Assembly (NCBI GenBank): GCA_023433465.1
Contig: JAEZCR010000026.1
Coordinates: 4,989-68,988, forward strand
Direction: 5' to 3'
Source: Pseudomonadota bacterium
GTDB taxonomy: Bacteria > Pseudomonadota > Gammaproteobacteria > Steroidobacterales > Steroidobacteraceae
DNA length: 64,000 bases
The translations under genes were made by a program, and so were the position numbers. Below, piece after piece: positions 8,910-46,776 of the stretch. Position 1 is the first letter of the stretch. Each line of letters starts with the position of its first letter. The notes under the pieces were generated by a model. The model saw only the letters and a program-made list of their open reading frames with translations. It had not been told where the DNA came from and searched no databases.

Positions 8910-9639
8910 GGAATATGATGCGGTCATGGAATCGACGGCGCCCGACTGGGTCTCCGAAACTCGCTTCGGTAAATGGTTTCTCTCCACGGAGACCTGGTTT
9001 CGATACGTTCTTTCGCAGGCCGTCGCGGACCTGCGGGTGCTCGCGGGACCGGATCTGCCTGCATCGTTCAACCGTCTCATGGACGTCGGCTGCGGGCAAG
9101 GACTCGCCTTCCAGCTCCTCGAAAAACATTTCGCGCCACGCGCGATCGTCGGCGTCGACGTCGATCCGCGCATGGTCGAGGAGGCCCGGAAAGCGGCGGA
9201 CGGATGCAAGGTTCCCGTCGAAGTACGCACCGGTTCGGTCACGAAACTCGAACTGCCCGATGAGTCGGTGGACGCGATCCTGTGCCACCAGCTCATCCAC
9301 CACGTTGCGAACCAGCAAGGCGCGCTGCGCGAGCTGTATCGCGTGCTGGCGCCGGGCGGCTATCTGTTCCTGTCGGAGTCCTGCGAATCGTTCATCAACA
9401 CCTGGACGGTGCGCTGGTTCTTCCGGCACCCGGAGGGCGTGCAACGGCCCGCGGAGGGTTACGTGAAGTTAGTGCGCGAGGCGGGCTTTCAGGTCGAGGA
9501 GCGCCACGTCCACACGTCCACGCCGTGGTGGTCGCTGTGGGATTTCGGGCTTACGCGCCGGCTCGGCCTCGTGCGCACTGCCCCTCTCCCCACCGAACTG
9601 CTGCTGGTTGCCAGAAAGGGGGCAGCCCCCGTTTCCTAG
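8908..9639 (+). CDS. Class I SAM-dependent methyltransferase
   Basis: Motif I LMDVGCGQG, and post-I/II motifs (VGVDVDP, DAILCHQLIHH). The last codons and the stop lie inside the palindromic element at 9617-9716. The start is uncertain (8908 or 8926). Confidence 0.75.
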   Translation: MEYDAVMESTAPDWVSETRFGKWFLSTETWFRYVLSQAVADLRVLAGPDLPASFNRLMDVGCGQGLAFQLLEKHFAPRAIVGVDVDPRMVEEARKAADGCKVPVEVRTGSVTKLELPDESVDAILCHQLIHHVANQQGALRELYRVLAPGGYLFLSESCESFINTWTVRWFFRHPEGVQRPAEGYVKLVREAGFQVEERHVHTSTPWWSLWDFGLTRRLGLVRTAPLPTELLLVARKGAAPVS

Positions 9640-9716
9640 CGAAAGGGGTCAGCCCTCGGCGAGCGACATTTTTGAGAAGGACTGACCCCTTTCGCTGGGA
9701 AATGGGGGCTGCCCCC
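9617..9716. repeat. Nested palindromic extragenic element, copy 1 (REP/MITE-like; probable terminator)
   Basis: Arms GGGGGCAGCCCCCGTTTCCTAGCGAAAGGGGTCAG (9617-9651) and CTGACCCCTTTCGCTGGGAAATGGGGGCTGCCCCC (9682-9716) are near-perfect reverse complements. Each arm also contains the sub-palindrome GGGGGC-A-GCCCCC. Confidence 0.85.
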
Positions 9717-9767
9717 ATTATTCTTGCGCCACGCCGCGCTCCCGCGCGGTGGTCTCGGAGGGCGCAG

Positions 9768-10517
9768 ATGTTTGGTCGCATAGCCAACCTGTTCAAAGGT
9801 TTCCTGTCACTGTTCGTTTCCGGCATCGAACGCCGTAACCCCGAGGCCCTGCTCGAGCTCGAGCAGGAAAACCTCCGCAAGCAGATAGGCAATTTCAACC
9901 AGGGGCTGGCCTCGCACGCGGGACTTTCCGAGCGGCTCATGAGCCAGGTCCGCAAGCTCGAGGCCGAGCAGCGCGACCTGCGCGCCAAGACCACCGCGCA
10001 CGTCCGGGCCGGCAACAATTCCGCCGCCGGCCAGTACGCACTGCGCCTGCAGTCCGTCGAGCAGCAGCTCGCCGAGAACCGCACGCAGCTCGAGGCCGCC
10101 GAGACGACCTACAAGAACCTCGTCAAGGCGCGCGACGTCGCCGTGCAGACCGCGCGCGCGAAGATCGAAAGCCTGAAGGGCGCCATCAACGACATGCGCA
10201 TGAAGCAGGCCATGGCCGAGATCCACGAGATGTCCGCCGGAATGATCACGAATATCGGCGGCTCCGGGGACACCCTGAATCGCCTCCATGAAATGGTCGA
10301 AGAGGAGCGCAACAAGGCCGCCGGGCGCGCCAGGGTCGCGCGCGACGCGGTCGACATGTCCCAGGTCGAGCTCAAGGAACCCGAGATGAACGCGCTCGCC
10401 GACCAGGCGCTCGCGGACTTCGCCGCGCGCGAAGGCATCTCGATCAAGGGCGCCGCGGCGCCGGCCGCGGCGGAGCGCTCCATGGGCGAGACCGAGAAAC
10501 CGCAAGGTCAGGGCTGA
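9768..10517 (+). CDS. PspA/IM30 (Vipp1/ESCRT-III-like) family protein
   Basis: 249 aa starting MFGRIANLFKGFLSLFVSGIERRNPEALLELEQENLRKQ. It is an all-coiled-coil PspA_IM30 type. The longer ORF from 9282 crosses the palindromic element and is rejected. Confidence 0.8.
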   Translation: MFGRIANLFKGFLSLFVSGIERRNPEALLELEQENLRKQIGNFNQGLASHAGLSERLMSQVRKLEAEQRDLRAKTTAHVRAGNNSAAGQYALRLQSVEQQLAENRTQLEAAETTYKNLVKARDVAVQTARAKIESLKGAINDMRMKQAMAEIHEMSAGMITNIGGSGDTLNRLHEMVEEERNKAAGRARVARDAVDMSQVELKEPEMNALADQALADFAAREGISIKGAAAPAAAERSMGETEKPQGQG

Positions 10518-10564
10518 CGGAGACGTTGGTAGTTAGCACGCCAGCGTCGCCGGGAGGTTGACCG

Positions 10565-12226
10565 GTGCCCGCGCCAGCAAACGCCCCCGCCTGGGCCGCC
10601 GAGCTCGCGCTCGCATACGAGAGCGGCGCGTCGAGCCAGTTCATCCTGTTCGGCAACGTGCACGACCGGCTCGCGGTCGGCTCGACGCTCGTCGATCTCG
10701 CCGACTACCTCGAGAACACGCTGCTCGAGCGCTTCGACGTCGTGTTGTCGTACGACCTCGGCAACGGGCTGCTGTTCGAACGCGGCGGCAGCGTCGTCGA
10801 GAAATGGCAGGGCGCCGAGCTGCGCAACCGCATGCGCGAGCCCCTGCAGGCGATCCAGTGGATAGGCAGCTACGCGCGCTACCTCGGCAACCTGCGCACC
10901 CTTGGTATCAGTGGGGGCAGCAAGGAACGCGTGCCGAACGTCGCCGTCATCCTGCGCGGCGTCGACCACATCGTGCCCGCGGACGGTTCGGGCTTCGAGC
11001 ACGGCAGCCTCACGAGCATGTTGCGTGCGTGGGCGAGCGAAGCGCCGTTCCGCGACCTGCCCTTCGCGAGCATTCTCATCGCCGACAACCTCAACGACGT
11101 CGAGCCGCAGGTCGCGACCGCCGCGCACGCGACGCGCATTCGCGTGCCGCTGCCCGACGCACCCGCGCTCGGACGCGCGCTCGACATCCTTTCGCGTGGT
11201 TCGCCGAAAGCGTTCGCGCCCGGCGCGAAGCTCGATGAGCTCGCTGGCGCGCTCGCCGGCGTCACCGTGTCGAGCCTCGAAAGCCTGGTGAAGACCCGGC
11301 ACCACGAAGGCAAACCGATCGGCGACGCGGATCTCTCGCGCATCAAGAAGGAACTGGTCGAGCGCGACTCCGCGGGACTCATCGAGTTCATCGACCCGAA
11401 GCGCTCGCTCGCCGACTACCACGGGCAGGAGGCGCTCAAGACCTGGCTGCGCCAGGACATCGCGCTGTGGCGCGCGGGCGATCTCAAGGCCCTGCCCATG
11501 GGCTATCTACTCTGCGGGCCGGTCGGTACCGGCAAGACTTTCCTGGTCGAATGCCTCGCGGGCGAAGCCGGCGTGCCGGTCGTCAAGCTCAAGAATTTCC
11601 GCGACCGCTGGGTGGGTTCTTCCGAAGGCAATCTCGAAAAGATCTTCCGGCTCATACGGGCGCTCGGCCGCTGCATGGTGTTCATCGACGAGGCCGATCA
11701 GACGCTCGGCAAGCGCGACTCCGGAGCCAACGACTCGGGCCTCTCGGGCCGCATCTACTCGATGATCGCCCAGGAGATGTCGGACAGTGGCAATCGCGGC
11801 CGCGTGTTGTGGCTGCTGGCCTCGTCGCGCCCCGATCTCATCGAAGTCGATCTCAAGCGTCCCGGCCGCGTCGACGTGAAAGTGCCGCTGCTGCCCACCA
11901 GCACGCCCGCCGAAAGCGCGCAGCTGATCGGCACGCTCGCGAAACGTTACGGCCTCGCGCTGGAACCCGCGGATTTCGCGCGCCTCGAAGGACGCATGCC
12001 CACGCTGCTCACGCCCGGCGCCGCGGAGGCGCTCGTGGTCAAGGCCTACCGGCATTCGAAGACGCAGAACGTGCCCGGCGCCGCCGCGCTCGAGGCCAGC
12101 CTCGAGGGCTACCAGAATCCAGTGCCCGCCGACGTGCTCGATTTCCAGATGCGCATCGCCATTCGCGAGGCCACCGATCTGGGGTTCGTGCCGCCCGCGT
12201 TCCGCGCGATGGCCCAGGCGACGTGA
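10565..12226 (+). CDS. Classic-clade AAA+ ATPase with an unknown ~290-aa N-terminal region
   Basis: GTG start with GGGAGG 7 nt upstream. Walker A GPVGTGKT, Walker B MVFIDEAD, and second region of homology ASSRPDLIEVDLKRPGRVD (Vps4/katanin/FtsH-like single AAA cassette). Confidence 0.85.
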   Translation: MPAPANAPAWAAELALAYESGASSQFILFGNVHDRLAVGSTLVDLADYLENTLLERFDVVLSYDLGNGLLFERGGSVVEKWQGAELRNRMREPLQAIQWIGSYARYLGNLRTLGISGGSKERVPNVAVILRGVDHIVPADGSGFEHGSLTSMLRAWASEAPFRDLPFASILIADNLNDVEPQVATAAHATRIRVPLPDAPALGRALDILSRGSPKAFAPGAKLDELAGALAGVTVSSLESLVKTRHHEGKPIGDADLSRIKKELVERDSAGLIEFIDPKRSLADYHGQEALKTWLRQDIALWRAGDLKALPMGYLLCGPVGTGKTFLVECLAGEAGVPVVKLKNFRDRWVGSSEGNLEKIFRLIRALGRCMVFIDEADQTLGKRDSGANDSGLSGRIYSMIAQEMSDSGNRGRVLWLLASSRPDLIEVDLKRPGRVDVKVPLLPTSTPAESAQLIGTLAKRYGLALEPADFARLEGRMPTLLTPGAAEALVVKAYRHSKTQNVPGAAALEASLEGYQNPVPADVLDFQMRIAIREATDLGFVPPAFRAMAQAT

Positions 12227-12230
12227 TGTC

Positions 12231-13097
12231 ATGACGGACAAGCCGTCCTATCTGTCGAAGGCGTTCAACGCCCGGCCGTTCGGAATGCCGATCCCGCCCA
12301 ACTGGTTCGGCCTCGCGGCGTTCGGTTTCATGGGCGCGTTCGTTCATCCGGGAATCTGGCTCATCGGCCTCGGGCTCGAAGGCATCTACCTCTGGGCGCT
12401 GTCGCGGAACACGCGTTTCCGCAAGGTCGTCGACGCCGAGGCGGGGTTCACCGACAGCACGTCGCGCTACGAATCGCTCCTCGCGCACCTCGATTCCTCC
12501 GCGCAATCGCGCCAGTACGAGATCGAGCGCGAAGCCGCGGAGATCGTCGCGCTGCTGCAGCGGGCGCCCGCTTCCGGCTCGCAGGTCGGCGACATCCGTC
12601 AGATGGCCTGGCTGCACCTCAAACTACTTGCGGCGCGCGCCTCGTTCATCGAGGTGATCGAGGCCGCGGACCGCGAGCGCAGGAAGCTCGACGAAGAAGA
12701 GACCCGCGCCCGCAAGCGCCTCGCCTCCCCCGACACCGATGAAGAACTGCGCCGCAGCCTCGAGCAGCAGCTCGCGGTCATACAGTCACGCTACGCCGCG
12801 CATCGCGACGCGAAGCGCCGCCTCGAGCTCGTGGACGCGGAACTCGGCCGGTTGCGGCAGCAGGTTTCGCTGGTGCGCGAGCAGGCTCTGCTCGCGACCG
12901 ACGAGAACACAATGGCGCAGTCGCTCGATGCCGTGACCGCCTCGCTCAACGAGGCGAATCGCTGGCTCAAGGATCAGCGCGAATTGTTCGCGGGCATCGA
13001 CACATTTACCGACGAACCACCGCCCGCGGACCTGTTGGCGTCGCGGCGCGCGGGCTCGCACTCGGGCAAGAGCGCCAGGAAGAGAGAACTGGAGTGA
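12231..13097 (+). CDS. Two-TM membrane protein with a long cytoplasmic coiled coil
   Basis: Hydrophobic segments FGLAAFGFMGAFV and GIWLIGLGLEGIYLWAL are followed by a charged heptad-like region. It starts 4 nt after the AAA+ stop. Confidence 0.55.
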   Translation: MTDKPSYLSKAFNARPFGMPIPPNWFGLAAFGFMGAFVHPGIWLIGLGLEGIYLWALSRNTRFRKVVDAEAGFTDSTSRYESLLAHLDSSAQSRQYEIEREAAEIVALLQRAPASGSQVGDIRQMAWLHLKLLAARASFIEVIEAADRERRKLDEEETRARKRLASPDTDEELRRSLEQQLAVIQSRYAAHRDAKRRLELVDAELGRLRQQVSLVREQALLATDENTMAQSLDAVTASLNEANRWLKDQRELFAGIDTFTDEPPPADLLASRRAGSHSGKSARKRELE

Positions 13098-13123
13098 GCT
13101 GCACGTTCACCGGAGGAGCAACC

Positions 13124-14827
13124 ATGCTTTCGATTCGTCAACGCGGCTCGGCCGCCGGCAACATCATCACGCTTGTGTTGTTGTTGGGTCTCGTCGGTCT
13201 GGGCGCCTGGCTGTGGCTGGGCAAGAAAGGCACCGAGAGCTCCCCGGACAGTTCGCGCTCCGCGACGAGCGCCCAGCAGTCCGCCCGGTCCTCCGGCATC
13301 GCGGCGCCCGAAGGCGAAGCGCCCGAGCCCATCGAGCCCGTCACGGGCACGCCAACTCTCGAAGCCGCAAACACCTTCGTGCCGAAGGACAACACGCTGC
13401 GCATCGACATCAGCGAATACGCGGGATACGGCGGTCTCATCGTCGCGAACGGCGGCCTCGAGGCGAACGAGAACTCGTTCTTCTTCAAGGAATACGGCTT
13501 CAAGGTCGCGATCTCGATGAGCGAGAGCGAGACCTGGGGACCGCTCAACAATGGCCGGCTCGCGGCGACCGCGACGACGGTGGACGCACTCGCGGTGCTC
13601 GGCCGGCAGTTCGACGCGATCGTGCCGATCCAGCTCGGGTTCTCGCGCGGCGCGGACATGGTGGTCGTCGATCGCGGCATTGCATCGGTGAACGCGCTCG
13701 CGGGCAAGACGCTTGCCGCCTCGCAGTTCAACGAGAGCGAATTCTTCATCCGTTATCTCTCGCAGGAGGCCGGCGTGCCGGTCACGGTGCTGCGCGACCT
13801 CGACTCCAAGCCGGCGCCGGGTAGTTTGGGCCTCGTGTTCTACGAGGACGCGTTCGTCGCCTGCGACGCGTACCAGCACGAGCTCGCGAGCGGCGACAAT
13901 CGTCTCAACGGCTGCGTGGGCTGGACACCCAAGACGAACGAGGTGGTCGAGGCGTCGAACGGCGCCGCCAAGGTCCTCGTCTCGAACCGCAACCTGCTCG
14001 TGATCGCCGACGTGCTCGCCGTGAACAAGGGCTTCGCGCAGGCGAATCCGAAAATGGTCCAGGGCCTCGTGCACGGCATTCTCGAAGGCAACCGCCGCCT
14101 GCGCGACACCCCGGCCGAGCACATCGGAGTGGTCGCGAAGGCGTTCAAGTGGACCGAGGAAGAAACGCGCGACGAGCTCGCGCACGTGCATCTTTCGAAC
14201 CTGCCCGAGAACCGCGCGTTCTTCGCCGGCACCATCGATTCGGCGGGATCGTTCGGCGGCATCTTCCAGTCGTCGGTGCTCGCGTACGGGTCGGTCATCA
14301 AAAACCCGACGGATCCGTCGCGCTTCCTGGACACGAGCGCGCTCGACGCACTCGCCAAGCGCGGCCTGTTCGCCGATCAGAAGATCGCGATCGCGCCGAT
14401 CCGCACCGCGACGCAGGCTTCGCTCGAGGGCGATCCGCTGCTCAGCAAGGACATCCGCTTCTACTTCGAACCGAACTCGGCGACGCTGGACCGTGGCAAG
14501 GCGGAGAACCAGGAGTATCTGCAGACGATCAAGCGCTTCCTGCAGGTGAGCCCGGGCTCGACCGTGCTGCTGCGCGGCCACGTCGACAACGCACGCGTGA
14601 ACGAATTCAAGCAGCAGGGCGGCGATCAGCTCGTGCAGAGCATGGCGCTGAAGGCGATGGAGCTGTCACGCCAGCGCGCGCTCGCGGTGAGCGCGGCGCT
14701 GCTCGAGAAATTCCCGGACATCGACAAGACGCGCGTCGAGGCCGTGGGTCGCGGGTGGGAGGAGCCGACCAGCACCGACAGCGCGCAAAACCGCCGCGTC
14801 GAAGTCCAGTGGTTCACCATTGAGTAA
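13124..14827 (+). CDS. Membrane-anchored periplasmic substrate-binding (NMT1/ABC SBP-like) domain fused to a C-terminal OmpA-like peptidoglycan-binding domain
   Basis: ATG preceded by GGAGGA. N-terminal anchor IITLVLLLGLVGLGAWLWL. C-terminal OmpA-like LLRGHVDN...LSRQRALAVSAAL...GRGWEEP...AQNRRVEVQW. Confidence 0.7.
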   Translation: MLSIRQRGSAAGNIITLVLLLGLVGLGAWLWLGKKGTESSPDSSRSATSAQQSARSSGIAAPEGEAPEPIEPVTGTPTLEAANTFVPKDNTLRIDISEYAGYGGLIVANGGLEANENSFFFKEYGFKVAISMSESETWGPLNNGRLAATATTVDALAVLGRQFDAIVPIQLGFSRGADMVVVDRGIASVNALAGKTLAASQFNESEFFIRYLSQEAGVPVTVLRDLDSKPAPGSLGLVFYEDAFVACDAYQHELASGDNRLNGCVGWTPKTNEVVEASNGAAKVLVSNRNLLVIADVLAVNKGFAQANPKMVQGLVHGILEGNRRLRDTPAEHIGVVAKAFKWTEEETRDELAHVHLSNLPENRAFFAGTIDSAGSFGGIFQSSVLAYGSVIKNPTDPSRFLDTSALDALAKRGLFADQKIAIAPIRTATQASLEGDPLLSKDIRFYFEPNSATLDRGKAENQEYLQTIKRFLQVSPGSTVLLRGHVDNARVNEFKQQGGDQLVQSMALKAMELSRQRALAVSAALLEKFPDIDKTRVEAVGRGWEEPTSTDSAQNRRVEVQWFTIE

Positions 14828-14829
14828 AA

Positions 14830-14909
14830 GGGGGCAGCCCCCGTTTCCCAGCAAAAGGGGTCAGTCCTGGAGGGCTGACCCCTTTTGCTAGGAAAGGGGG
14901 GCTGCCCCC
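14830..14909. repeat. Nested palindromic extragenic element, copy 2 (bidirectional terminator position)
   Basis: Arms GGGGGCAGCCCCCGTTTCCCAGCAAAAGGGGTCAG (14830-14864) and CTGACCCCTTTTGCTAGGAAAGGGGGGCTGCCCCC (14875-14909). The family is the same as copy 1 with a shorter central spacer. It sits between convergent genes. Confidence 0.85.
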
Positions 14910-14915
14910 TTACAC

Positions 14916-39735: not shown

Positions 39736-40085
39736 TTTTTCTTAGAAATCGTCTTCCCTTGCCTGCTCGCCCACTCCTGCAATTGTTCCGCCGTGATCTT
39801 CTTTTCAATCACCGTACGAAATGCCATCGCGAACTTCGGATCGGACTGCGTGACTCGTTTAATGTCTTCAATGGGCGGACGTACATCACGTGACCGGAGT
39901 TCATCTTCGGAGACGCCAAGCACTTTGGCGATTTGCACCAACACCTTCTCCGAAGGATGGCGGCGTCCAAGCTCTATGTCCGACAAGAATGGCGGCGTAC
40001 ATCCAATTTGCCGCGCAATCTCGCGAAGGGATATGTCTCGCTCGTCGCGGACACGCCGTATGTATTCTCCAAGTGTTTCGCTCAT
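39732..40085 (-). CDS. capH: XRE-family helix-turn-helix regulator (CapH-like)
   Basis: LGEYIRRVRDERDISLREIARQIGCTPPFLSDIELGRR is a classic XRE HTH. It is paired with the ImmA-like peptidase. Confidence 0.7.
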   Translation of the reverse strand: MSETLGEYIRRVRDERDISLREIARQIGCTPPFLSDIELGRRHPSEKVLVQIAKVLGVSEDELRSRDVRPPIEDIKRVTQSDPKFAMAFRTVIEKKITAEQLQEWASRQGKTISKKK

Positions 40086-40271
40086 TGTGTAAGCGTAGGA
40101 AGCTTACGGAGATCTGTCAAACACGCCGCGAACGCAACTCTCCTGTGTCATTCGCCGATGAACGGTTCGCCGGCCGAAGTGCCTGTCGCTACTTTCTCTC
40201 CTATCAAGAGGCGGTCAATTCCTCTCGTGATCAACGCCAATCCCGTGTCGTTCCTTGCGCGCGGCGTCCCT

Positions 40272-43200
40272 TCAAATGCCCAGCCTCGGAAGGCTCTTTA
40301 CGATCTTCACGCTTTCGATGCTCACCGTCACGACGCGAAGCAAGAGTTCCAGCGGATAACGCGAGTTCTTCATTGTTTCGACCGCCCATGAGTTCGCGTC
40401 GTTAACGATGCCGCTATCCTTCTCCGTGCGTACACCTTGACGTTCCATCACCCATTCAATAGCGGGCTTGCCGTTGACCACATACTCGAAAGCTTCCTCT
40501 GGTATCCCTCGAATCGTGATGAGTTCGTTGTACTCCACGACCGTGCGATCTTTCTCACCGCCGCGCTTGCCAAACCGCATCTTCTCGACACGATAGTCGG
40601 CCCCTTTAAGGCGCCTACCCCCGCTGTCAACCGTCGCCGCGAACATCTCTTGGCCATCGTAGTCAAGATGAAGTTTCGCAAGCGCGCGCCCCGCGCGGCT
40701 AAACTCCCAAAAACTGTTTGCTCCCGGAACACACGGAATCCTTGGCAACTCCTTTCCGAGATTGTCCGCGTAACGCTCACGATACTCCGGCGAATGCAGC
40801 AATCCGTAGACGTAGTAGAAGACGTCTTCCTTGCTCAAAGTCTCGCCAGGATACGCGGACCGGAAAGTATCGAGCCCGTGATCGGTAATGCCGTCTCGGC
40901 GAATCGAGTCCACATCCGATCCAAACGCGAGTCCGCGCTGTCCGCCAGCTTCTTCGGCTTCGCCTTCTGCCCTCTCAAATACGAAGAGCGGAAAGTACTG
41001 AGACCCCACCATGTCAGTTGCGTGAAGTGAGGTCACCCGATTGGAAATGAAGACTGACCACTGGCTGCGCGACTCGGACGCCGAAACACCGATTACGATG
41101 TTGGCTGAGTGGTCGTCTGGAAAGAACTTCGGCATCAGCAAGACCATCTCGTTCAGGTCTCTTTGAAAGTAAAGCCATTGCGTCATAAAGGGGCGGTACG
41201 TGCTCTTCACGATACAGGCGGGTTCGAAATCGTGCGTTCTGCCTCTCGCAACTTGTTGCTTCAGGCCGCGACTCCAGCTGATCTGTGTCGTGTCGGTTCG
41301 GATGAAGTCAGCCACAGCTGCCTCCTTCTCCTTTGACGTCATCCCCTTGTGGTTCTTGGCGAAGCGTTTGGACTCCCCGTTGAAAAATTGGATCATCCGG
41401 GTCATGTTTTCCGTGACGGCTTCTTTCGAAAAGTTGTAGCACCAAGCGTCCCGGGCCGTCACCACGCCAAGCGAGAAAGTCTCAAAGAGTGCCGGCTCAC
41501 TACCTGTCTTCGATCCCATTGAAATGAATCTTCCGAAGCTGTCATCGCGCTGCTTAAGCCAGTCTCCGTGCGCATCCGGCGTAATCGTCCGCCAAGCATT
41601 CTCTCGAGAAAGGCCTTGGATACTGCCAAAGGCTGAAATCCTCTCTACCTTCTCATCGCGCGTGAGGTAGTCGCCGATATCGTGAAAGTGGATAGCTGCA
41701 GGCCGTGGTGATGATGGGTTCTTCACGAATAGCGAAATCGCCACTGGCGCGCGGCTCCCGACTCCAAAAACGTTGTCCTTTTCCTTCCGCCGCTGTTCGC
41801 CTGAAGTTCTGGCGTTACCGCGCAAATGCAGGACGTAAATGGAGCTGAATTCGTCGGAGAGACATCGGCGCAACCCATCCGTCGTTCCAGCCTCTAAAAA
41901 GTTGGCGTTTGTGACAAAGCCAATAACTCCAGCATCTCCAATGCGGTCTGAAGCCCAACGAATAGCCCTCACGTAACTGTCATACAGGCCGCGCGACAGC
42001 GCAGCTTGTGACCGCGCCGCGTATGTGTTCGCGATCCGCTCATCAAGATTTGGATAGCTCACGTTTTGATTATTTTCGTTTTGACTCTCCTGGCCGATCG
42101 AATATGGCGGATTTCCGATGATGACTCGAATATCTAGTTTCTTCTGGCGCTTTCTGCGCGCGCTGTTATCGATCATCAGCGCTGAAAGCAGATCATCACG
42201 CTCATACATCTGAAAAGTGTCGGTCAGGCATATGCCATCAAAGGGTTCGTAATCTCCACCCACTAGCCCGTGGTATACCGCCTCAATGTTTATCGCCGCG
42301 ATGTAGTACGCGAGAAGCACGATCTCGTTGGCATGAATTTCACCCTTGTACTTTCGACGTAGTTCGTCGGGCCGAATTAACCCGCTTTGGAGAAGACGTG
42401 TGATGAATGTGCCGGTCCCTGTAAATGGATCGATGATGTGAACCCCTGGACTGCCAAGTGTCCCTCCAAATTCTTTCTCAAGAACCTGAGCCACGCTTTG
42501 AATGATGAAGTCAACGACTTCTACTGGCGTGTAAACAATTCCAAGGCGGTCGGTCAGCTTTCGAAACGCATTACGAAAAAATTTGTCGTAGAGCTCAACA
42601 ACGATCTTCTGTTTGCCGGCTGCACTTTCGATCCCTTCGGCTCGCAGCTTCACACTCTCGTAAAACGACTGCAGCGTGCTCGATTCCTTCTCTAAGTGAT
42701 GCTTTTCAAGGACGTCTAGAACACCCTGCATCGCAATCGACATCGGGTTGTGTTTGGCAAAACTATATTGTTCGAACAGCGCATCGAATACGGGCTTGGT
42801 AATGAGATGCTGTGCGAGCATCTCTATAATTTCCGAGTCTGAGACGCTGTCATTGAGGTCGTCACGAAGTTCGCGAGCAAATGCCTGAAAGGCCTCTCTC
42901 TCCCGCTTGTTAGCGGGGTCTCCGACGATTGCAGATATTCTGTCGATGTGCGTACGGGCGATCTTCGCGATGTCATTGGCCCAATCTTCCCAATGTCGAC
43001 GATTTCCAACCTTCTGAACCAGCTTCGCGTAGATCGCTCGCTCGATTTCCCCGATCTCGAACTGCAGCTCGTGCTGATCTTCTTTGCTATAGCGTTTCGG
43101 AGCCGCCTCGCCGATCACAAATTGGTTTTTCGCTCCGGAATCCGCCTTGCTGCCTTTCGTCCTGTCCACCTTTCGATGGATCTTGTCGGTGATGGCGATC

Positions 43201-45182
43201 ACTTCCATCTTTTTTACGTCTTTGCCAACCAAGTCGAGCTTGTTGACCATGGCGTCGAATCGATCGTCGTGCGAACGCAAGGCCTGGAGCACCTGCCAAA
43301 CAACCTTGTAAGTCTGATTGTCATTGAGCGCTTCGTGAGGTTCGATGCCTGGCGGAATCACGACTGGCAAAACAACGTAACCGAGCTTCTTGCCCTCGGC
43401 CTTTCGCATGACTCGTCCGACCGACTGAACGACTTCGACTTGCGAGTTTCTCGGAGCAAGAAACAGAACCGCGTCCAATGCTGGAACGTCGACGCCTTCC
43501 GCAAGGCATCGCACATTGCTCAGCACGCGACAGGTCTGAGGCGGCGGATTGGACTTCAGCCAGCTCAACTTCGCTTCCTTCTCTGACGCGTTCATGCCTC
43601 CATCAACATGCTCCGCTTCGCAGGCTAGTTGAGGCACACCGTCCTCTTCCGCGCCTTCTTGGTACGCCTCCACTACCGCCTGGAACATACCGGCGATGTT
43701 CTTCGAGCTGACCTTGTGAACCTTTGACGCCCTTTGCACCTCAATGACTTGGCAGAAAGCAACCGCGCGATGCATGGGCGCATCGTCTCCAGCCAGACTC
43801 TCCGCAAGCCCATGCTTCGAGAGAGCCTTCCAGCAGCCGATGATTTTGGCGGCGTCGTCAACTCTGAGCTGGTTGTTTTCGTCCTTCAGTAGATTCTGAA
43901 GGCGGCGATTGATGTGCGCTTCCTCGACCGCGAGCACGATAACCTTGTAGTCCACGAGCAAGTCGCGTTTGACTGCATCCGAGAATGTGATTACGTAGAG
44001 CTCGTTGCCGTACTTCTCGACGTCATCCATCCCGTATAGCGCAACGTTATCCCGCTCTGCACTCGCTTTGGCCAGCTCGCCATAGATTCGAGGCGTCGCC
44101 GTCATATAGAGGCGCTTCTTGCTCAACAAATACTTGGCGTCGTGCACGCGGACAAAGTGACTTTCCTCGTCACCCTCAAACTTTGCCCCCGTGGTGCGAT
44201 GTGCTTCGTCACAGATGATGAGGTCAAATCCAGGAAGCCCGTGCTTTTTCTGGGCGGCGCTCACCACGTCGATCGACTGGTAGGTGCCAAACACAACGCT
44301 CATGTGTTTCGAGTCGTGGCGCTTCACCATCTCCGCAGCAAGCCGCTTCGCATCCGTAGTGGCTGGATAGCGCAGCTCGTGGGTGAATGTTTGAACCGTG
44401 TCGTCGTCCTTGCTCCGCTTCTTGCCGACATCACTGTCCGAGCAAACTGCGAAGCTGTGGAGCGGCGTCCCGCTCTCTTGAGTCCACTCTGTGAGCGTTT
44501 GAGAAAGCAGTGCGAGACTTGGCACCAGGAAAAGTACGCGTTTGCCGTTGCCAGCGATCTCTTCGGCGACCTTCAAGCTGGTGAATGTCTTGCCGGTGCC
44601 GCAAGCCATGATCAGCTTGCCGCGGTCGGCAGCTTTCAGACCAGCCAAAACCGCCTCAACGGCGCTCTTCTGATGAGGCCTGAGGCTCTTCTTTGCCTTT
44701 AAGACCGCGGACTTCTTTGCCTGAAATTTTGACCAATCGACCTGGCTGTTCTCGAGATCGTGCAAATCGATCTTGCTGACCGGCGGCTGCTGATCGCGAA
44801 GCGCGTCCTCTGCGTGTTCGGTCCAATGGTTTGTCGTGCTGACAATGACCCTGTACGAGAACTGCTTCTTTCCCGATGCGGTAAAGAAGCTATCGATATC
44901 ACTCTTTTGTAGACGATAACTTTCATCGTAGAGCTTGCATTGGATCGCGTGAAACTCGTTGGTGCCCGCAGTTCTCGCAACAAGATCAATGCCCGCATCC
45001 TGTTTCGTGATGCCCTGCTCAGCTGCCCAATCTCCGTACGACCAGACCTTGTCGTAAAGATCTCGATAGGTGGCTTCGTTACGGAGATAGCAAAGAATCA
45101 GCTCCTCGAAGTACGTGCCCTTTTCGCGTTCGGTAAGAGCAGCGGAACGGTACTCGTCTAAGAGCTTACGTAGAGCGGACAT
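40272..45182 (-). CDS. Type ISP restriction-modification enzyme (Mrr-like nuclease + SF2 translocase + gamma-class N6-adenine methyltransferase + TRD)
   Basis: N-terminal PD-(D/E)xK-like GIDLVAR...HAIQCK. Helicase motif I MACGTGKTFT and motif II ICDEAHR. MTase motif I IIDPFTGTGTF and motif IV IIGNPPYS. 1636 aa in a single polypeptide. Confidence 0.8.
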   Translation of the reverse strand: MSALRKLLDEYRSAALTEREKGTYFEELILCYLRNEATYRDLYDKVWSYGDWAAEQGITKQDAGIDLVARTAGTNEFHAIQCKLYDESYRLQKSDIDSFFTASGKKQFSYRVIVSTTNHWTEHAEDALRDQQPPVSKIDLHDLENSQVDWSKFQAKKSAVLKAKKSLRPHQKSAVEAVLAGLKAADRGKLIMACGTGKTFTSLKVAEEIAGNGKRVLFLVPSLALLSQTLTEWTQESGTPLHSFAVCSDSDVGKKRSKDDDTVQTFTHELRYPATTDAKRLAAEMVKRHDSKHMSVVFGTYQSIDVVSAAQKKHGLPGFDLIICDEAHRTTGAKFEGDEESHFVRVHDAKYLLSKKRLYMTATPRIYGELAKASAERDNVALYGMDDVEKYGNELYVITFSDAVKRDLLVDYKVIVLAVEEAHINRRLQNLLKDENNQLRVDDAAKIIGCWKALSKHGLAESLAGDDAPMHRAVAFCQVIEVQRASKVHKVSSKNIAGMFQAVVEAYQEGAEEDGVPQLACEAEHVDGGMNASEKEAKLSWLKSNPPPQTCRVLSNVRCLAEGVDVPALDAVLFLAPRNSQVEVVQSVGRVMRKAEGKKLGYVVLPVVIPPGIEPHEALNDNQTYKVVWQVLQALRSHDDRFDAMVNKLDLVGKDVKKMEVIAITDKIHRKVDRTKGSKADSGAKNQFVIGEAAPKRYSKEDQHELQFEIGEIERAIYAKLVQKVGNRRHWEDWANDIAKIARTHIDRISAIVGDPANKREREAFQAFARELRDDLNDSVSDSEIIEMLAQHLITKPVFDALFEQYSFAKHNPMSIAMQGVLDVLEKHHLEKESSTLQSFYESVKLRAEGIESAAGKQKIVVELYDKFFRNAFRKLTDRLGIVYTPVEVVDFIIQSVAQVLEKEFGGTLGSPGVHIIDPFTGTGTFITRLLQSGLIRPDELRRKYKGEIHANEIVLLAYYIAAINIEAVYHGLVGGDYEPFDGICLTDTFQMYERDDLLSALMIDNSARRKRQKKLDIRVIIGNPPYSIGQESQNENNQNVSYPNLDERIANTYAARSQAALSRGLYDSYVRAIRWASDRIGDAGVIGFVTNANFLEAGTTDGLRRCLSDEFSSIYVLHLRGNARTSGEQRRKEKDNVFGVGSRAPVAISLFVKNPSSPRPAAIHFHDIGDYLTRDEKVERISAFGSIQGLSRENAWRTITPDAHGDWLKQRDDSFGRFISMGSKTGSEPALFETFSLGVVTARDAWCYNFSKEAVTENMTRMIQFFNGESKRFAKNHKGMTSKEKEAAVADFIRTDTTQISWSRGLKQQVARGRTHDFEPACIVKSTYRPFMTQWLYFQRDLNEMVLLMPKFFPDDHSANIVIGVSASESRSQWSVFISNRVTSLHATDMVGSQYFPLFVFERAEGEAEEAGGQRGLAFGSDVDSIRRDGITDHGLDTFRSAYPGETLSKEDVFYYVYGLLHSPEYRERYADNLGKELPRIPCVPGANSFWEFSRAGRALAKLHLDYDGQEMFAATVDSGGRRLKGADYRVEKMRFGKRGGEKDRTVVEYNELITIRGIPEEAFEYVVNGKPAIEWVMERQGVRTEKDSGIVNDANSWAVETMKNSRYPLELLLRVVTVSIESVKIVKSLPRLGI

Positions 45183-45207
45183 TCAATCTCTCCCTCAAGT
45201 GCTGCCG

Positions 45208-46776
45208 TCATTTCTTCTGCTTCTCTTTCCGCGCGACTTTCGAAGTTGTACTTCTTGCGTCGCCGTTGGTTAGTTCGGCAAGAAACTTCGCAAAGGGCTT
45301 AATGTCTCCGCCCACGCTGGCGCTCTCTAGCGCAGCCATGTAGTCGGCGCGGCGCTCCAGCGGAACGATGACCCAGGGGTATCCGCCGGAAGAGAGCATG
45401 AGATTCATTAGGAATCTACCGATGCGCCCGTTCCCGTCCATGTAAGGATGGATGTACACAAACATGAAGTGACCGAGTACGACGCGCACAGACGCCTCTT
45501 CTTCGCGCTCCAACAACTCGAACAGCGCGGGCATGAGTTCGCGCACCGCTTCGATGTTCGGCGGAGTGTGCATTGATCGCCGGATGTAGACAGGACCATT
45601 GCGGTATCCGGCGAGATCGGCGGCGCGCAGAATGCCTGCCGTGACGCTTGGACCGAATAATTCGCGATACCAAGTTGCGTGGTCGCTATCGGCGATGCGC
45701 CCTGCGTTCTCGCCACCCAATACCTTCTTGATGCTCTGCTCGACAGCCTGAAACGCCTGCCAGTACCCGCGAGCTGCCAACGCGTTTCGGTGTTCCTGAT
45801 CGTCTTTGTTGGTGTCGGGGCTCCAGTTGCCGGCGCGAACCTTCTCGATGAGCGCTGCGCTGACTTTGTACCCCTCAATGGACAACGAGTTGTAGGCGTC
45901 GTTGGCGTAAATCTCTTCAACCTGTTTCAGGTATGCGGCAGTGCTCTTGGGTCGACCAGGTGCGGCCGGAAAGATGGCGAGCACGTCTTCACGCATCCGC
46001 GCCCAGTCCATGCGCATGCGATTGACGTAGGGCGAAGTCTCGCGGGCGCCGAATGCGACAAGTGAGTCATCCTCGAACGGATCGCTTTCGTTAACGGTGT
46101 ATCCGGCGGCCTGCATCGCTCCGACGATGTCATTGGCGATCCGGTCCCGCCCAATGTTTCTGAAGGCGGCCGCCAGCCGGCCTGCGACCGTGCTACGTCC
46201 GCCATCGAGCAGCCGACTGAGCAAGTCCGATGCGTCTTGAACCATGGCGAGCGCCGCGCGCATTTCAGTTGGCCGCGCGGCAAATTGCGCCGGCGAGCAG
46301 GACAGCAATGCGGCGGACAACTTGTAGAGTCTGACGCCGTCTTTCACTTCCCGATCGACGGCGGGAGGCAAATCGAGGCGGACATCGAATATTGACGTCC
46401 CGTGAATGAACTCGGTGGGTTTGTTGTTTCCGCGAGGCGAGCGCACGAGCAATTGTCGCGGCACGGTCCAGTTGCCGGTATGCAAACTAATGGATTGCTC
46501 CGGACTGACGCACCAGTCCTCGCCTAAACGGGAATCGAGATAAGACGAGCAGAAGGACCAGAACGAGGCGTACCAGGAGGTGCTTTCGCCTGCCGGCTCG
46601 TCCGGCCTGCACGGGATGTACCAGCCTCTTATTACCTCTTTTATGAATCCGGCTTTGACCAGACGTTCGCGGTGGGTTCGGCTCATGTCGCTGAAGCGAA
46701 GCGCAACGCGTCCCGCGTCCTGAAGTTCTTTCAGGACGGCAAGAGAAGCGGCCAATTTGTCGGCGGGCGTCGCCAT
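45208..46776 (-). CDS. Fic-domain protein (AMPylase family) with a large N-terminal extension
   Basis: Fic motif HPYMDGNGRIGR. The upstream SLSIEG fits the (S/T)xxxE(G/N) inhibitory-helix motif. Confidence 0.8.
   Translation of the reverse strand: MATPADKLAASLAVLKELQDAGRVALRFSDMSRTHRERLVKAGFIKEVIRGWYIPCRPDEPAGESTSWYASFWSFCSSYLDSRLGEDWCVSPEQSISLHTGNWTVPRQLLVRSPRGNNKPTEFIHGTSIFDVRLDLPPAVDREVKDGVRLYKLSAALLSCSPAQFAARPTEMRAALAMVQDASDLLSRLLDGGRSTVAGRLAAAFRNIGRDRIANDIVGAMQAAGYTVNESDPFEDDSLVAFGARETSPYVNRMRMDWARMREDVLAIFPAAPGRPKSTAAYLKQVEEIYANDAYNSLSIEGYKVSAALIEKVRAGNWSPDTNKDDQEHRNALAARGYWQAFQAVEQSIKKVLGGENAGRIADSDHATWYRELFGPSVTAGILRAADLAGYRNGPVYIRRSMHTPPNIEAVRELMPALFELLEREEEASVRVVLGHFMFVYIHPYMDGNGRIGRFLMNLMLSSGGYPWVIVPLERRADYMAALESASVGGDIKPFAKFLAELTNGDARSTTSKVARKEKQKK

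Follow-up and report, generated by a model that had tools for sequence, protein, structure and literature searches.

We analysed a 64-kb stretch of DNA from a metagenomic soil gammaproteobacterium of the Steroidobacteraceae (the whole stretch is called the window hereafter) and, within it, a cassette of four genes that encode a PspA/IM30-family protein, an AAA+ ATPase, a membrane-anchored coiled-coil protein (G3) and an envelope protein (G4). The four genes share one order and one strand in about 50 genomes, which represent at least three lineages at the rank of phylum or class, and the ATPase is a tandem AAA protein whose first domain (D1) has lost the nucleotide-binding residues of its P-loop and whose second domain (D2) has kept its catalytic and pore residues. 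The sequence and the predicted fold of the ATPase best fit a short Cdc48-like unfoldase that has no N domain, a dead D1 and an active D2. Our preferred reading, which is tentative and which we hold with a little less than even confidence, is that the cassette encodes a module that remodels PspA polymers, with the Cdc48-like unfoldase, G3 as a partner and G4 as an anchor to the cell wall.

Tandem architecture of the ATPase

An earlier note, written from the sequence of the same DNA, had described a single-cassette, classic-clade AAA+ ATPase with an unknown N-terminal region of about 290 residues. The clade was correct, as PF00004 matches residues 314-440 (E 6e-24), and so was the count of one apparently active cassette; the motifs GPVGTGKT, FIDEAD and RPGRVD that the note had read are found at residues 318-325, 373-378 and 432-437. 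The N-terminal region, however, is a second, degenerate AAA domain. When profiles of residues 1-270 and residues 280-553, both drawn from one 43-sequence alignment, were compared with hhalign, they aligned over 220 columns (probability 87.7%, E 3.4e-6), in a register that places the D1 segment F-x-L-H-G-N-V-x-D on the Walker A motif G-P-V-G-T-G-K-T and a D1 hydrophobic strand ending in A-E/D on the D2 Walker B motif. The AlphaFold2 (AF2) model of the ATPase (predicted local distance difference test score, pLDDT, 82.6) likewise contains a beta-alpha-beta domain followed by a helical lid, twice. In a Foldseek search of the PDB, the top 50 matches were all type-II ATPases (p97/VCP, Cdc48, Rix7, Afg2/Drg1 and NVL), with E-values of 5e-19 to 5.6e-17, 537-635 aligned columns that span both rings, and TM-scores up to 0.60; the best phmmer matches in the PDB were NVL, Cdc48 and Afg2.

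The earlier note had also suggested a search of the N-terminal region for a MIT-like domain. This candidate was ruled out: the region is a Rossmann-type alpha/beta domain with a lid, it contains no MIT domain, and it aligns to the AAA domain of the same protein and to D1 of p97/Cdc48. Since D1 begins near residue 9 in the AF2 model, there is no room for a separate N domain. The ATPase family comprises 797 clusters at 50% identity (E<=1e-30), and its full-length relatives reach down to about 28% identity, showing that the N-terminal region travels with the AAA domain.

The two domains differ sharply in their nucleotide-binding residues. Column counts over 43 homologues show that the P-loop position of D1 reads h-G-N-[VI]-x-D; the Lys and Thr of the P-loop are lost in all homologues and D1 is, as judged from these residues, nucleotide-dead. 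In D2, K324, D375, E376, an aromatic residue at 349, G351, R432 and R435 are kept in 43/43 homologues, down to 27% identity. Walker A and B motifs, a pore loop 1 of the form aromatic-hydrophobic-Gly and Arg fingers are together the signature of substrate-threading classical AAA proteins (Cdc48, Vps4, FtsH). Because both Walker motifs, the pore-loop aromatic and both Arg fingers are invariant in this set, D2 is probably an active polypeptide translocase, and the residues that ATP-driven threading would need are all in place for the classic-clade enzyme that the earlier note had recognised.

The label Vps4-like, on the other hand, does not fit. Vps4 and CdvC have an N-terminal MIT domain that binds MIM motifs of ESCRT-III and a beta-domain inserted in the small subdomain. 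The window ATPase has neither, and it pairs a dead D1 with an active D2; the D2 lid in the AF2 model is all-helical, with two additional C-terminal helices and no strands past residue 441. The subfamily was judged by family-model scores and fold ranking: for the window protein, NCBIfam models gave bit scores of 69 for CDC48, 61.5 for FtsH, 48 for PAN and 36 for CdvC, and the best E-values over the 43 homologues keep this order. Vps4 is not among the 60 best PDB sequence matches nor among the 50 best fold matches.

Conservation of the cassette and spread of the ATPase family

A scan of one genome per species, seeded by 11 close ATPase sequences, returned 80 loci with ATPases that are 56-93% identical. 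In 58 of them PspA lies directly upstream of the ATPase, and about 50 of these cassette-type loci contain all four genes, PspA>AAA>G3>G4, on one strand, the remainder being cut by contig ends. Order and strand are kept in every cassette-type locus with enough flanking DNA, and stop and start codons often overlap; the neighbourhood is therefore conserved well outside the genome of the window, a check that the earlier note had named. Cassettes occur in Steroidobacteraceae, Lysobacterales, Ectothiorhodospiraceae, Dongia and Anaeromyxobacter, including several Anaeromyxobacter/Myxococcota metagenome-assembled genomes (MAGs), and so cover Gammaproteobacteria, Alphaproteobacteria (Dongia) and Myxococcota. 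Isolates that bear the cassette belong to Steroidobacter, Peristeroidobacter, Pseudoxanthomonas (one complete genome), Arenimonas, Denitratimonas, Pseudomarimonas and Dongia, and cultured carriers include Pseudoxanthomonas mexicana (NZ_CP157201.1), Arenimonas composti, Steroidobacter spp. and Dongia sedimenti. A methyltransferase gene upstream is common only to the closest relatives and the flanks otherwise differ, indicating that the conserved unit is exactly these four genes.

A second linkage exists at much greater distance. In Balneolaceae and a related soil MAG, where the ATPase is about 33% identical, genes for PspA, a 150-residue protein, a G3 homologue, an enoyl-CoA hydratase (ECH), a CNNM/CorC protein and the ATPase follow one another on the same strand, in 3/3 loci examined (L083, 2155-8710; L085, 2763-8716; L088, 1667-7704). 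The G3 homologue has 295 residues and is 22% identical to G3 (BLASTP 6e-9); no G4-like gene was seen among the called neighbours of this cluster. In hhalign, the 150-residue protein aligns with the C-terminal half of the profile for PspA (probability 91.6%, E 8e-7); its tail motif, K-T-I-G, resembles K-[ST]-[IV]-G, which the neighbouring PspA has in its own tail. Another ATPase homologue, from Fodinibius sediminis (P0433), is named 'Uncharacterized AAA domain-containing protein ycf46' in UniRef; cyanobacterial Ycf46 is a stress-induced AAA ATPase encoded in a three-gene operon (bioRxiv 10.1101/2025.07.21.665879).

These data bear on the simplest alternative, that the adjacency is non-functional and four independent envelope genes are merely co-located. 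Nothing specific speaks for it beyond the putative status of the interactions. Across Gammaproteobacteria, Alphaproteobacteria and Myxococcota the genes keep their order, their strand and their tight or overlapping junctions with differing flanks, and the Balneolaceae cluster is a second, independent linkage. We regard mere co-location as extremely improbable.

One cassette locus may join two of the genes. In a Myxococcota-like MAG (L064, 10001-12526) the ATPase and G3 read as one 842-residue open reading frame (ORF), with the AAA part at residues 13-546 and the G3 part at residues 563-841, at a junction where relatives have an ATGA stop/start overlap. The joined reading frame may be a natural fusion, and as such would speak for physical interaction, or else it reflects an indel error in a long-read assembly.

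The ATPase family also occurs in other settings. The remaining 22 of the 80 loci, mostly from Steroidobacteraceae/Povalibacter, encode a paralogue of 56-62% identity without PspA, G3 or G4. In Povalibacter uvarum (L076, 10001-14370) the gene for this paralogue shares 4 nt with the FecR-domain gene that follows it, and a gene for a BlaR1/M56 peptidase lies close by, which suggests that the ATPase family serves several membrane-signalling partners. Three other ATPase variants, of 583-655 residues, stand alone with no PspA nearby. The earlier note's description of the ATPase as a dedicated AAA+ partner is thus too narrow for the family, in which FecR-linked paralogues and stand-alone clades do without PspA. 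The link to PspA is real and recurrent; it belongs to certain clades and does not extend to the ATPase family as a whole.

PspA and the coiled-coil protein G3

The first gene of the cassette was correctly called as PspA/IM30: PF04012 matches it over its full length (profile positions 3-217 of 220) with E 8e-12 and 45.6 bits, above the cut-off of 33.9, and precomputed Pfam annotations label its orthologues in the same way. Neither BLASTP nor a hidden Markov model of 57 orthologues detected similarity between the operon PspA and E. coli PspA, and by sequence the operon protein is a divergent member of the family. Only the region of the N-terminal helix could be aligned, weakly, to E. coli PspA (its residues 4-38; hhalign E 0.008). 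This helix is amphipathic in the window protein (MFGRIANLFKGFLSLF), its sequence is conserved across operon PspAs (MFGRIANLFKGFLSLFVSG), and it is a candidate membrane-binding helix (H0). At the other end, a tail motif, R-[STA]-[ML]-G, follows a variable Ala/Pro-rich linker in 57/57 operon PspAs. A hallmark of the PspA/IM30 family is self-assembly into rings or rods that remodel membranes, which the operon protein may share.

A different role for PspA is that of a regulator or adaptor, which would hold the Cdc48-like enzyme inactive until membrane stress recruits PspA, whereupon the freed ATPase would extract or unfold damaged inner-membrane proteins, G3 or G4. There is a precedent in E. coli, where PspA inhibits the AAA+ domain of PspF (PMC7619361), and the occurrence of the ATPase family beside a FecR-domain protein and a BlaR1-type peptidase suggests general membrane-protein clients, with the neighbouring gene providing the adaptor. 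PspF, however, is a sigma-54 activator from another AAA+ clade, the operon PspA shares no detectable similarity with E. coli PspA beyond the family model, and the conserved, flexible tail of PspA fits a substrate tag at least equally well. We therefore consider this role unlikely, and return to the reading of PspA as the polymer on which the ATPase would act.

G3 was described in the earlier note as a coiled-coil protein with two transmembrane helices. The coiled coil and a hydrophobic hairpin are borne out; the two transmembrane helices are less certain. The hydrophobic element consists of helices of 15 and 17 residues (Kyte-Doolittle 1.4-1.5) linked by H-P-G, with a basic cluster right after it, and would be either two short transmembrane helices or a re-entrant hairpin. 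In the AF2 model (pLDDT 65), a helix at residues 89-111 precedes a hairpin of 50 and 51 residues, a further helix at 225-248 and a disordered tail. Both termini of G3 are conserved, flanking disordered linkers, and the most conserved segment in an alignment of 21 orthologues is the N-terminal AFNARPFGMPxPPNWF. At the C-terminus, close relatives have a basic stretch followed by K-V-S-E/Q and the Balneolaceae homologues end in R/Q-V-K-E; the window copy (13050-13097) ends in ARKRELE. As read from these sequences, the terminal motif is conserved across phyla yet altered in the window copy.

The predicted layout of G3 is compatible with an ESCRT-III-like hairpin, as in the neighbourhoods described in passages of Ravi et al. 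(mSystems 2024, PMC11237479). None of the 21 members of the G3 family had a Pfam match at E<=10, a Foldseek search of the PDB returned nothing at E<0.001 (the top matches were BAR proteins, SH3BP5 and designed bundles), and a profile search of the PDB gave no match to ESCRT-III/Snf7. An hhalign comparison of G3 with the operon PspA and E. coli PspA also found no relationship, and because its positive control, operon PspA against E. coli PspA, failed as well, the negative result of G3 against Snf7 has little weight.

The envelope protein G4

The earlier note had read G4 as a membrane-anchored substrate-binding protein (SBP) domain fused to an OmpA-like peptidoglycan anchor. The transmembrane anchor and the OmpA-like domain (PF00691, E 4e-11) stand, and a Ser/Pro/Ala-rich low-complexity linker joins the signal-anchor to the binding domain. 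The SBP-type domain is the less certain part: it matches NCBIfam SsuA_fam with E 4e-6, far under the cut-off of that model, and Pfam NMT1 with E 0.01, and a profile search of the PDB returned OmpA-type matches only, leaving the SBP domain unsupported there. Members of the G4 cluster in the Joint Genome Institute (JGI) data are named 'NitT/TauT substrate-binding protein'. By sequence, the OmpA assignment is firm and the SBP assignment weak but consistent.

This combination of domains raises the possibility that the core of the cassette is a trans-envelope sensor or tether composed of G3, G4 and the ATPase. G4 would bind a periplasmic solute and the wall, the ATPase would remodel or degrade the complex, comparable to the regulated proteolysis or extraction of anti-sigma-type proteins, and PspA would provide only local membrane protection. 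Apart from the joining of an SBP-type domain to OmpA in G4, this account draws on the pairing of the paralogous ATPase with a FecR-domain protein, on the archaeal Meth_adaptin ESCRT loci, which also hold a ProX-type SBP (Makarova et al. 2024), and on the longer neighbourhoods in passages of Ravi et al., which add an ABC ATPase and a permease. The cassette itself, by contrast, contains no transporter genes, and in the Balneolaceae cluster PspA, G3 and the ATPase are retained with no G4-like gene among the called neighbours, marking G4 as a dispensable part. To a sensor or tether as the core we give a low probability, and in what follows we keep to PspA and its remodelling as the centre of the module.

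Layout and surroundings of the cassette

The features of the cassette are collected in Table 1.

Table 1. Genes, domains and motifs of the cassette; positions are those of the window.
Feature	Position	Strand	Basis
pspA, divergent PspA/IM30 (ESCRT-III superfamily), 249 aa	9768-10517	+	PF04012
Tandem (type-II-like) classical AAA+ ATPase, 553 aa, GTG start	10565-12226	+	PF00004, AF2 model, Foldseek, PDB phmmer
D1, degenerate AAA domain, aa 1-275	10565-11389	+	hhalign, column counts, AF2 secondary structure
D2, probably active AAA domain, aa 280-553	11402-12226	+	PF00004, residue conservation
D2 Walker A	11516-11539	+	
D2 pore loop 1 (R-x-x-W-V-G)	11600-11617	+	
D2 Walker B	11681-11698	+	
D2 Arg fingers	11858-11869	+	
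G3, membrane-anchored coiled-coil protein, 288 aa	12231-13097	+	AF2, orthologue alignment, hydropathy
G3 hydrophobic helical hairpin, aa 24-58	12300-12404	+	
G3 predicted cytoplasmic helices 89-111, 116-165/171-221 (long hairpin) and 225-248	12495-12974	+	
G4, envelope protein, 567 aa	13124-14827	+	
G4 N-terminal signal-anchor transmembrane helix, aa 8-34	13145-13225	+	Kyte-Doolittle 2.53
G4 NMT1/SsuA-like substrate-binding-type domain (weakly matched), about aa 90-440	13391-14443	+	Weak SsuA_fam and NMT1 matches
G4 C-terminal OmpA-like peptidoglycan-binding domain	14462-14800	+	PF00691

The genes pspA, AAA, G3 and G4 are separated by 47, 4 and 26 nt, as the ORF listing and a reading of the junctions both give. 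The tight spacing that the earlier note had recorded is confirmed: genes called independently on the 75.6-kb metagenome contig from which the window comes (ENA k141_174447) are the identical four. Shine-Dalgarno-like sequences precede the start codons of the ATPase (GGGAGG) and of G4 (GGAGGAG). In the window the cassette is flanked by the methyltransferase gene and by a convergent gene for a membrane protein, and close relatives are Steroidobacteraceae MAGs. A sigma-70 promoter scan of the locus found no promoter, and inspection by eye upstream of pspA showed no convincing sigma-54 -24/-12 element. Terminator-like matches at the locus were at chance level, except for a palindrome directly 3' of G4.

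This palindrome is one of two long palindromes at the borders of the cassette (9615-9719 and 14827-14911), each with two 42-nt arms that are 90-93% complementary. They fold to hairpins of about 45 bp with energies of -87 and -82 kcal/mol (z -11 to -12.6), and their core, GGGGGCWGCCCCC, has four copies in the window, all at these two borders. The element matched no Rfam family and was found at none of the 80 related genome loci; exact copies of its 35-nt arm are present in at least 120 metagenome contigs from soil and rhizosphere in the JGI data, and the cassette genes were present in 0 of the 80 such contigs that were fetched. The palindromes are therefore ruled out as a part of the PspA system or as the boundary of a mobile cassette. 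The border element is a dispersed extragenic palindrome of the repetitive extragenic palindromic (REP) or miniature inverted-repeat transposable element (MITE) type, and it probably acts here as a terminator or stabiliser. A known defence system was likewise rejected as an identity for the cassette, as PADLOC matched only a generic AAA protein (IetA) and a MotB-like protein. Elsewhere in the window, positions 40001-46000 have a G+C content of 0.52-0.56, against about 0.65 in the rest, and may be a horizontally acquired island.

Proposed mechanism

We propose that the four genes act together as one module for envelope stress or membrane maintenance, with a PspA polymer of the ESCRT-III type and a dedicated hexameric unfoldase at its core. 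PspA would use its N-terminal amphipathic helix to bind the inner membrane on the cytoplasmic side, where it would polymerise. G3 would sit in the membrane by way of its hydrophobic hairpin, expose its long coiled coil to the cytoplasm and, from the membrane, partner PspA and/or the ATPase as a nucleator, receptor or co-polymer. In the ATPase, D1 would form a structural, nucleotide-dead ring and D2 the active translocase; the enzyme would grip a flexible tail of PspA and/or G3, thread it through the D2 pore with ATP and so extract subunits. Candidate tails are, in PspA, the conserved R-S-M-G tail and, in G3, the C-terminus, which is basic and of the form V-x-E. Extraction would recycle or remodel the polymer, as Vps4 does with ESCRT-III, although the enzyme here is of another build. 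G4, which would be anchored in the inner membrane and tied to peptidoglycan by its OmpA domain, may use its periplasmic SBP-type domain to position the module relative to the wall or to supply a periplasmic signal.

Several lines of evidence favour such a module. Order and strand are conserved in about 50 genomes of at least three lineages amid unconserved flanks, and PspA, a G3 homologue and the same ATPase family are linked a second time, at a distance, in Balneolaceae and relatives. The modelled fold matches substrate-engaged p97, Cdc48 and Rix7 over both rings, candidate recognition tags are present on the PspA tail (57/57) and at the termini of G3, and the L064 ORF is a possible AAA-G3 fusion. 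The same inference was also drawn independently from other genomes, in the passages of Ravi et al. on these neighbourhoods.

Other observations weigh against it. The ATPase family is not specific to PspA, given the FecR-linked paralogue clade and the three PspA-less clades, and in Balneolaceae two unrelated genes, for ECH and CNNM/CorC, lie between the ATPase gene and those for PspA and G3. A role for the tail motifs, which are short, is conjectural, the L064 fusion could be a nanopore indel, and an ESCRT-III-like nature of G3 could not be confirmed. In E. coli, PspA inhibits the AAA+ protein PspF, a relation of the opposite polarity. Finally, the interactions within the cassette are putative.

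A bolder form of the proposal sees in the cassette a genuine counterpart, in bacteria and in function, of ESCRT-III/Vps4, in which a Cdc48-derived ATPase with a fossil D1 ring would recognise tail motifs on PspA and on its coiled-coil partner, recycle the polymer with ATP and be coupled to the wall through the SBP-OmpA protein. We regard this form as doubtful. If it were true, bacteria would have a dedicated ESCRT-III disassemblase after all, and the cassette would offer a living model of the transition from Cdc48 to Vps4, with one ATPase domain decaying rather than lost. What remains of the earlier note's ESCRT-III/Vps4-type module is the conserved PspA-AAA unit and a plausible likeness in how it works; membership of Vps4 itself fails on the MIT domain, on the beta-domain and on the closest subfamily.

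Comparison with known systems

Related neighbourhoods have been published. In the passages concerned, Ravi et al. describe neighbourhoods of PspA with an inactive classical AAA, a classical AAA, a transmembrane 'Snf7' and a PBPB-OmpA protein, with examples in Clostridium (AEY64321.1) and Ca. Handelsmanbacteria (OGG56892.1). There the membrane-anchored protein is treated as a divergent Snf7, longer operons add an ABC ATPase and a permease, both treated as optional, and the PBPB+OmpA protein, and ATP-dependent membrane remodelling comparable to that by Snf7/Vps4 is proposed. Judged against those passages, our cassette has the same four domain types and the same proposed role, and the inactive N-terminal AAA copy is independently confirmed here. 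It differs in its compact order, PspA>AAA>G3>G4 without ABC ATPase or permease, as against the published example, PspA>PBPB-OmpA>TM>ABC>TM-Snf7>AAA (TM, transmembrane protein), and the Snf7 assignment of the transmembrane coiled-coil protein was not reproduced. Those passages mention neither its distribution over Steroidobacteraceae, Lysobacterales, Dongia and Anaeromyxobacter nor a paralogue linked to FecR. The cassette is thus a compact, widely distributed member of the class described there, and the hypothesis of an ESCRT-III/Vps4 analogy is not new. As the idea is already in the literature, the value of the present analysis lies in sharpening it and in naming tractable hosts, not in discovery. 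The earlier note's remark that PspA-AAA+ neighbourhoods are mentioned only in comparative surveys agrees with our literature search, which found no experimental study of them and no experimental work on this ATPase.

In the canonical Psp system (PspF-PspABC), as would be the case here, a PspA-family protein is functionally tied to an AAA+ protein. PspF is a sigma-54 enhancer-binding protein with a helix-turn-helix domain, and the window PspA has diverged too far for a direct match to E. coli PspA. The earlier note had stated that pspFABCD is absent, which holds within the reach of the 64-kb window: a tblastn search with E. coli PspF, A, B, C and D returned nothing better than E 0.18, and at E<=1 no PspF, PspB, PspC or PspD homologue.

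Vps4 and CdvC share several features with the window ATPase. Both are classical-clade AAA+ proteins encoded beside a gene of the ESCRT-III superfamily, both have a pore-loop aromatic and double Arg fingers, and in both cases the ESCRT-III-like partner has a conserved motif on a flexible C-terminal tail. Adjacency to such a gene is criterion ii of Makarova et al. 2024 for Vps4/CdvC, and PspA is the immediate upstream neighbour of our ATPase in the 58 cassette-type loci. The window ATPase differs in having no MIT domain, no beta-domain and two AAA domains, one of them dead, in place of one, and by sequence models it is nearer Cdc48 D2, FtsH and PAN than CdvC. A 2025 review holds that a Vps4-like ATPase 'appears absent in bacteria', and the lack in bacteria of any Vps4-like regulator for PspA/Vipp1 polymers has been stated in print. 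With the pairing of PspA and an apparently active unfoldase, the disassembly of ESCRT-III polymers in bacteria becomes a testable question, and directly so, since the cassette is present in cultured isolates.

The closest likeness is to Cdc48/p97/VAT, Rix7/NVL and Afg2, which provide the best sequence and fold matches. The window ATPase is far shorter than these proteins (553 residues), is bacterial and PspA-linked, lacks the N-terminal double-psi-barrel or cofactor-binding domain of the Cdc48/p97 group, and has lost the P-loop of D1. Makarova et al. 2024 derive Vps4 from Cdc48 by loss of one ATPase domain, a proposed origin on which a protein of dead-D1/active-D2 design has a bearing. In the window ATPase both domains superpose on D1 and D2 of the Cdc48 group, and D2 retains the full catalytic set.

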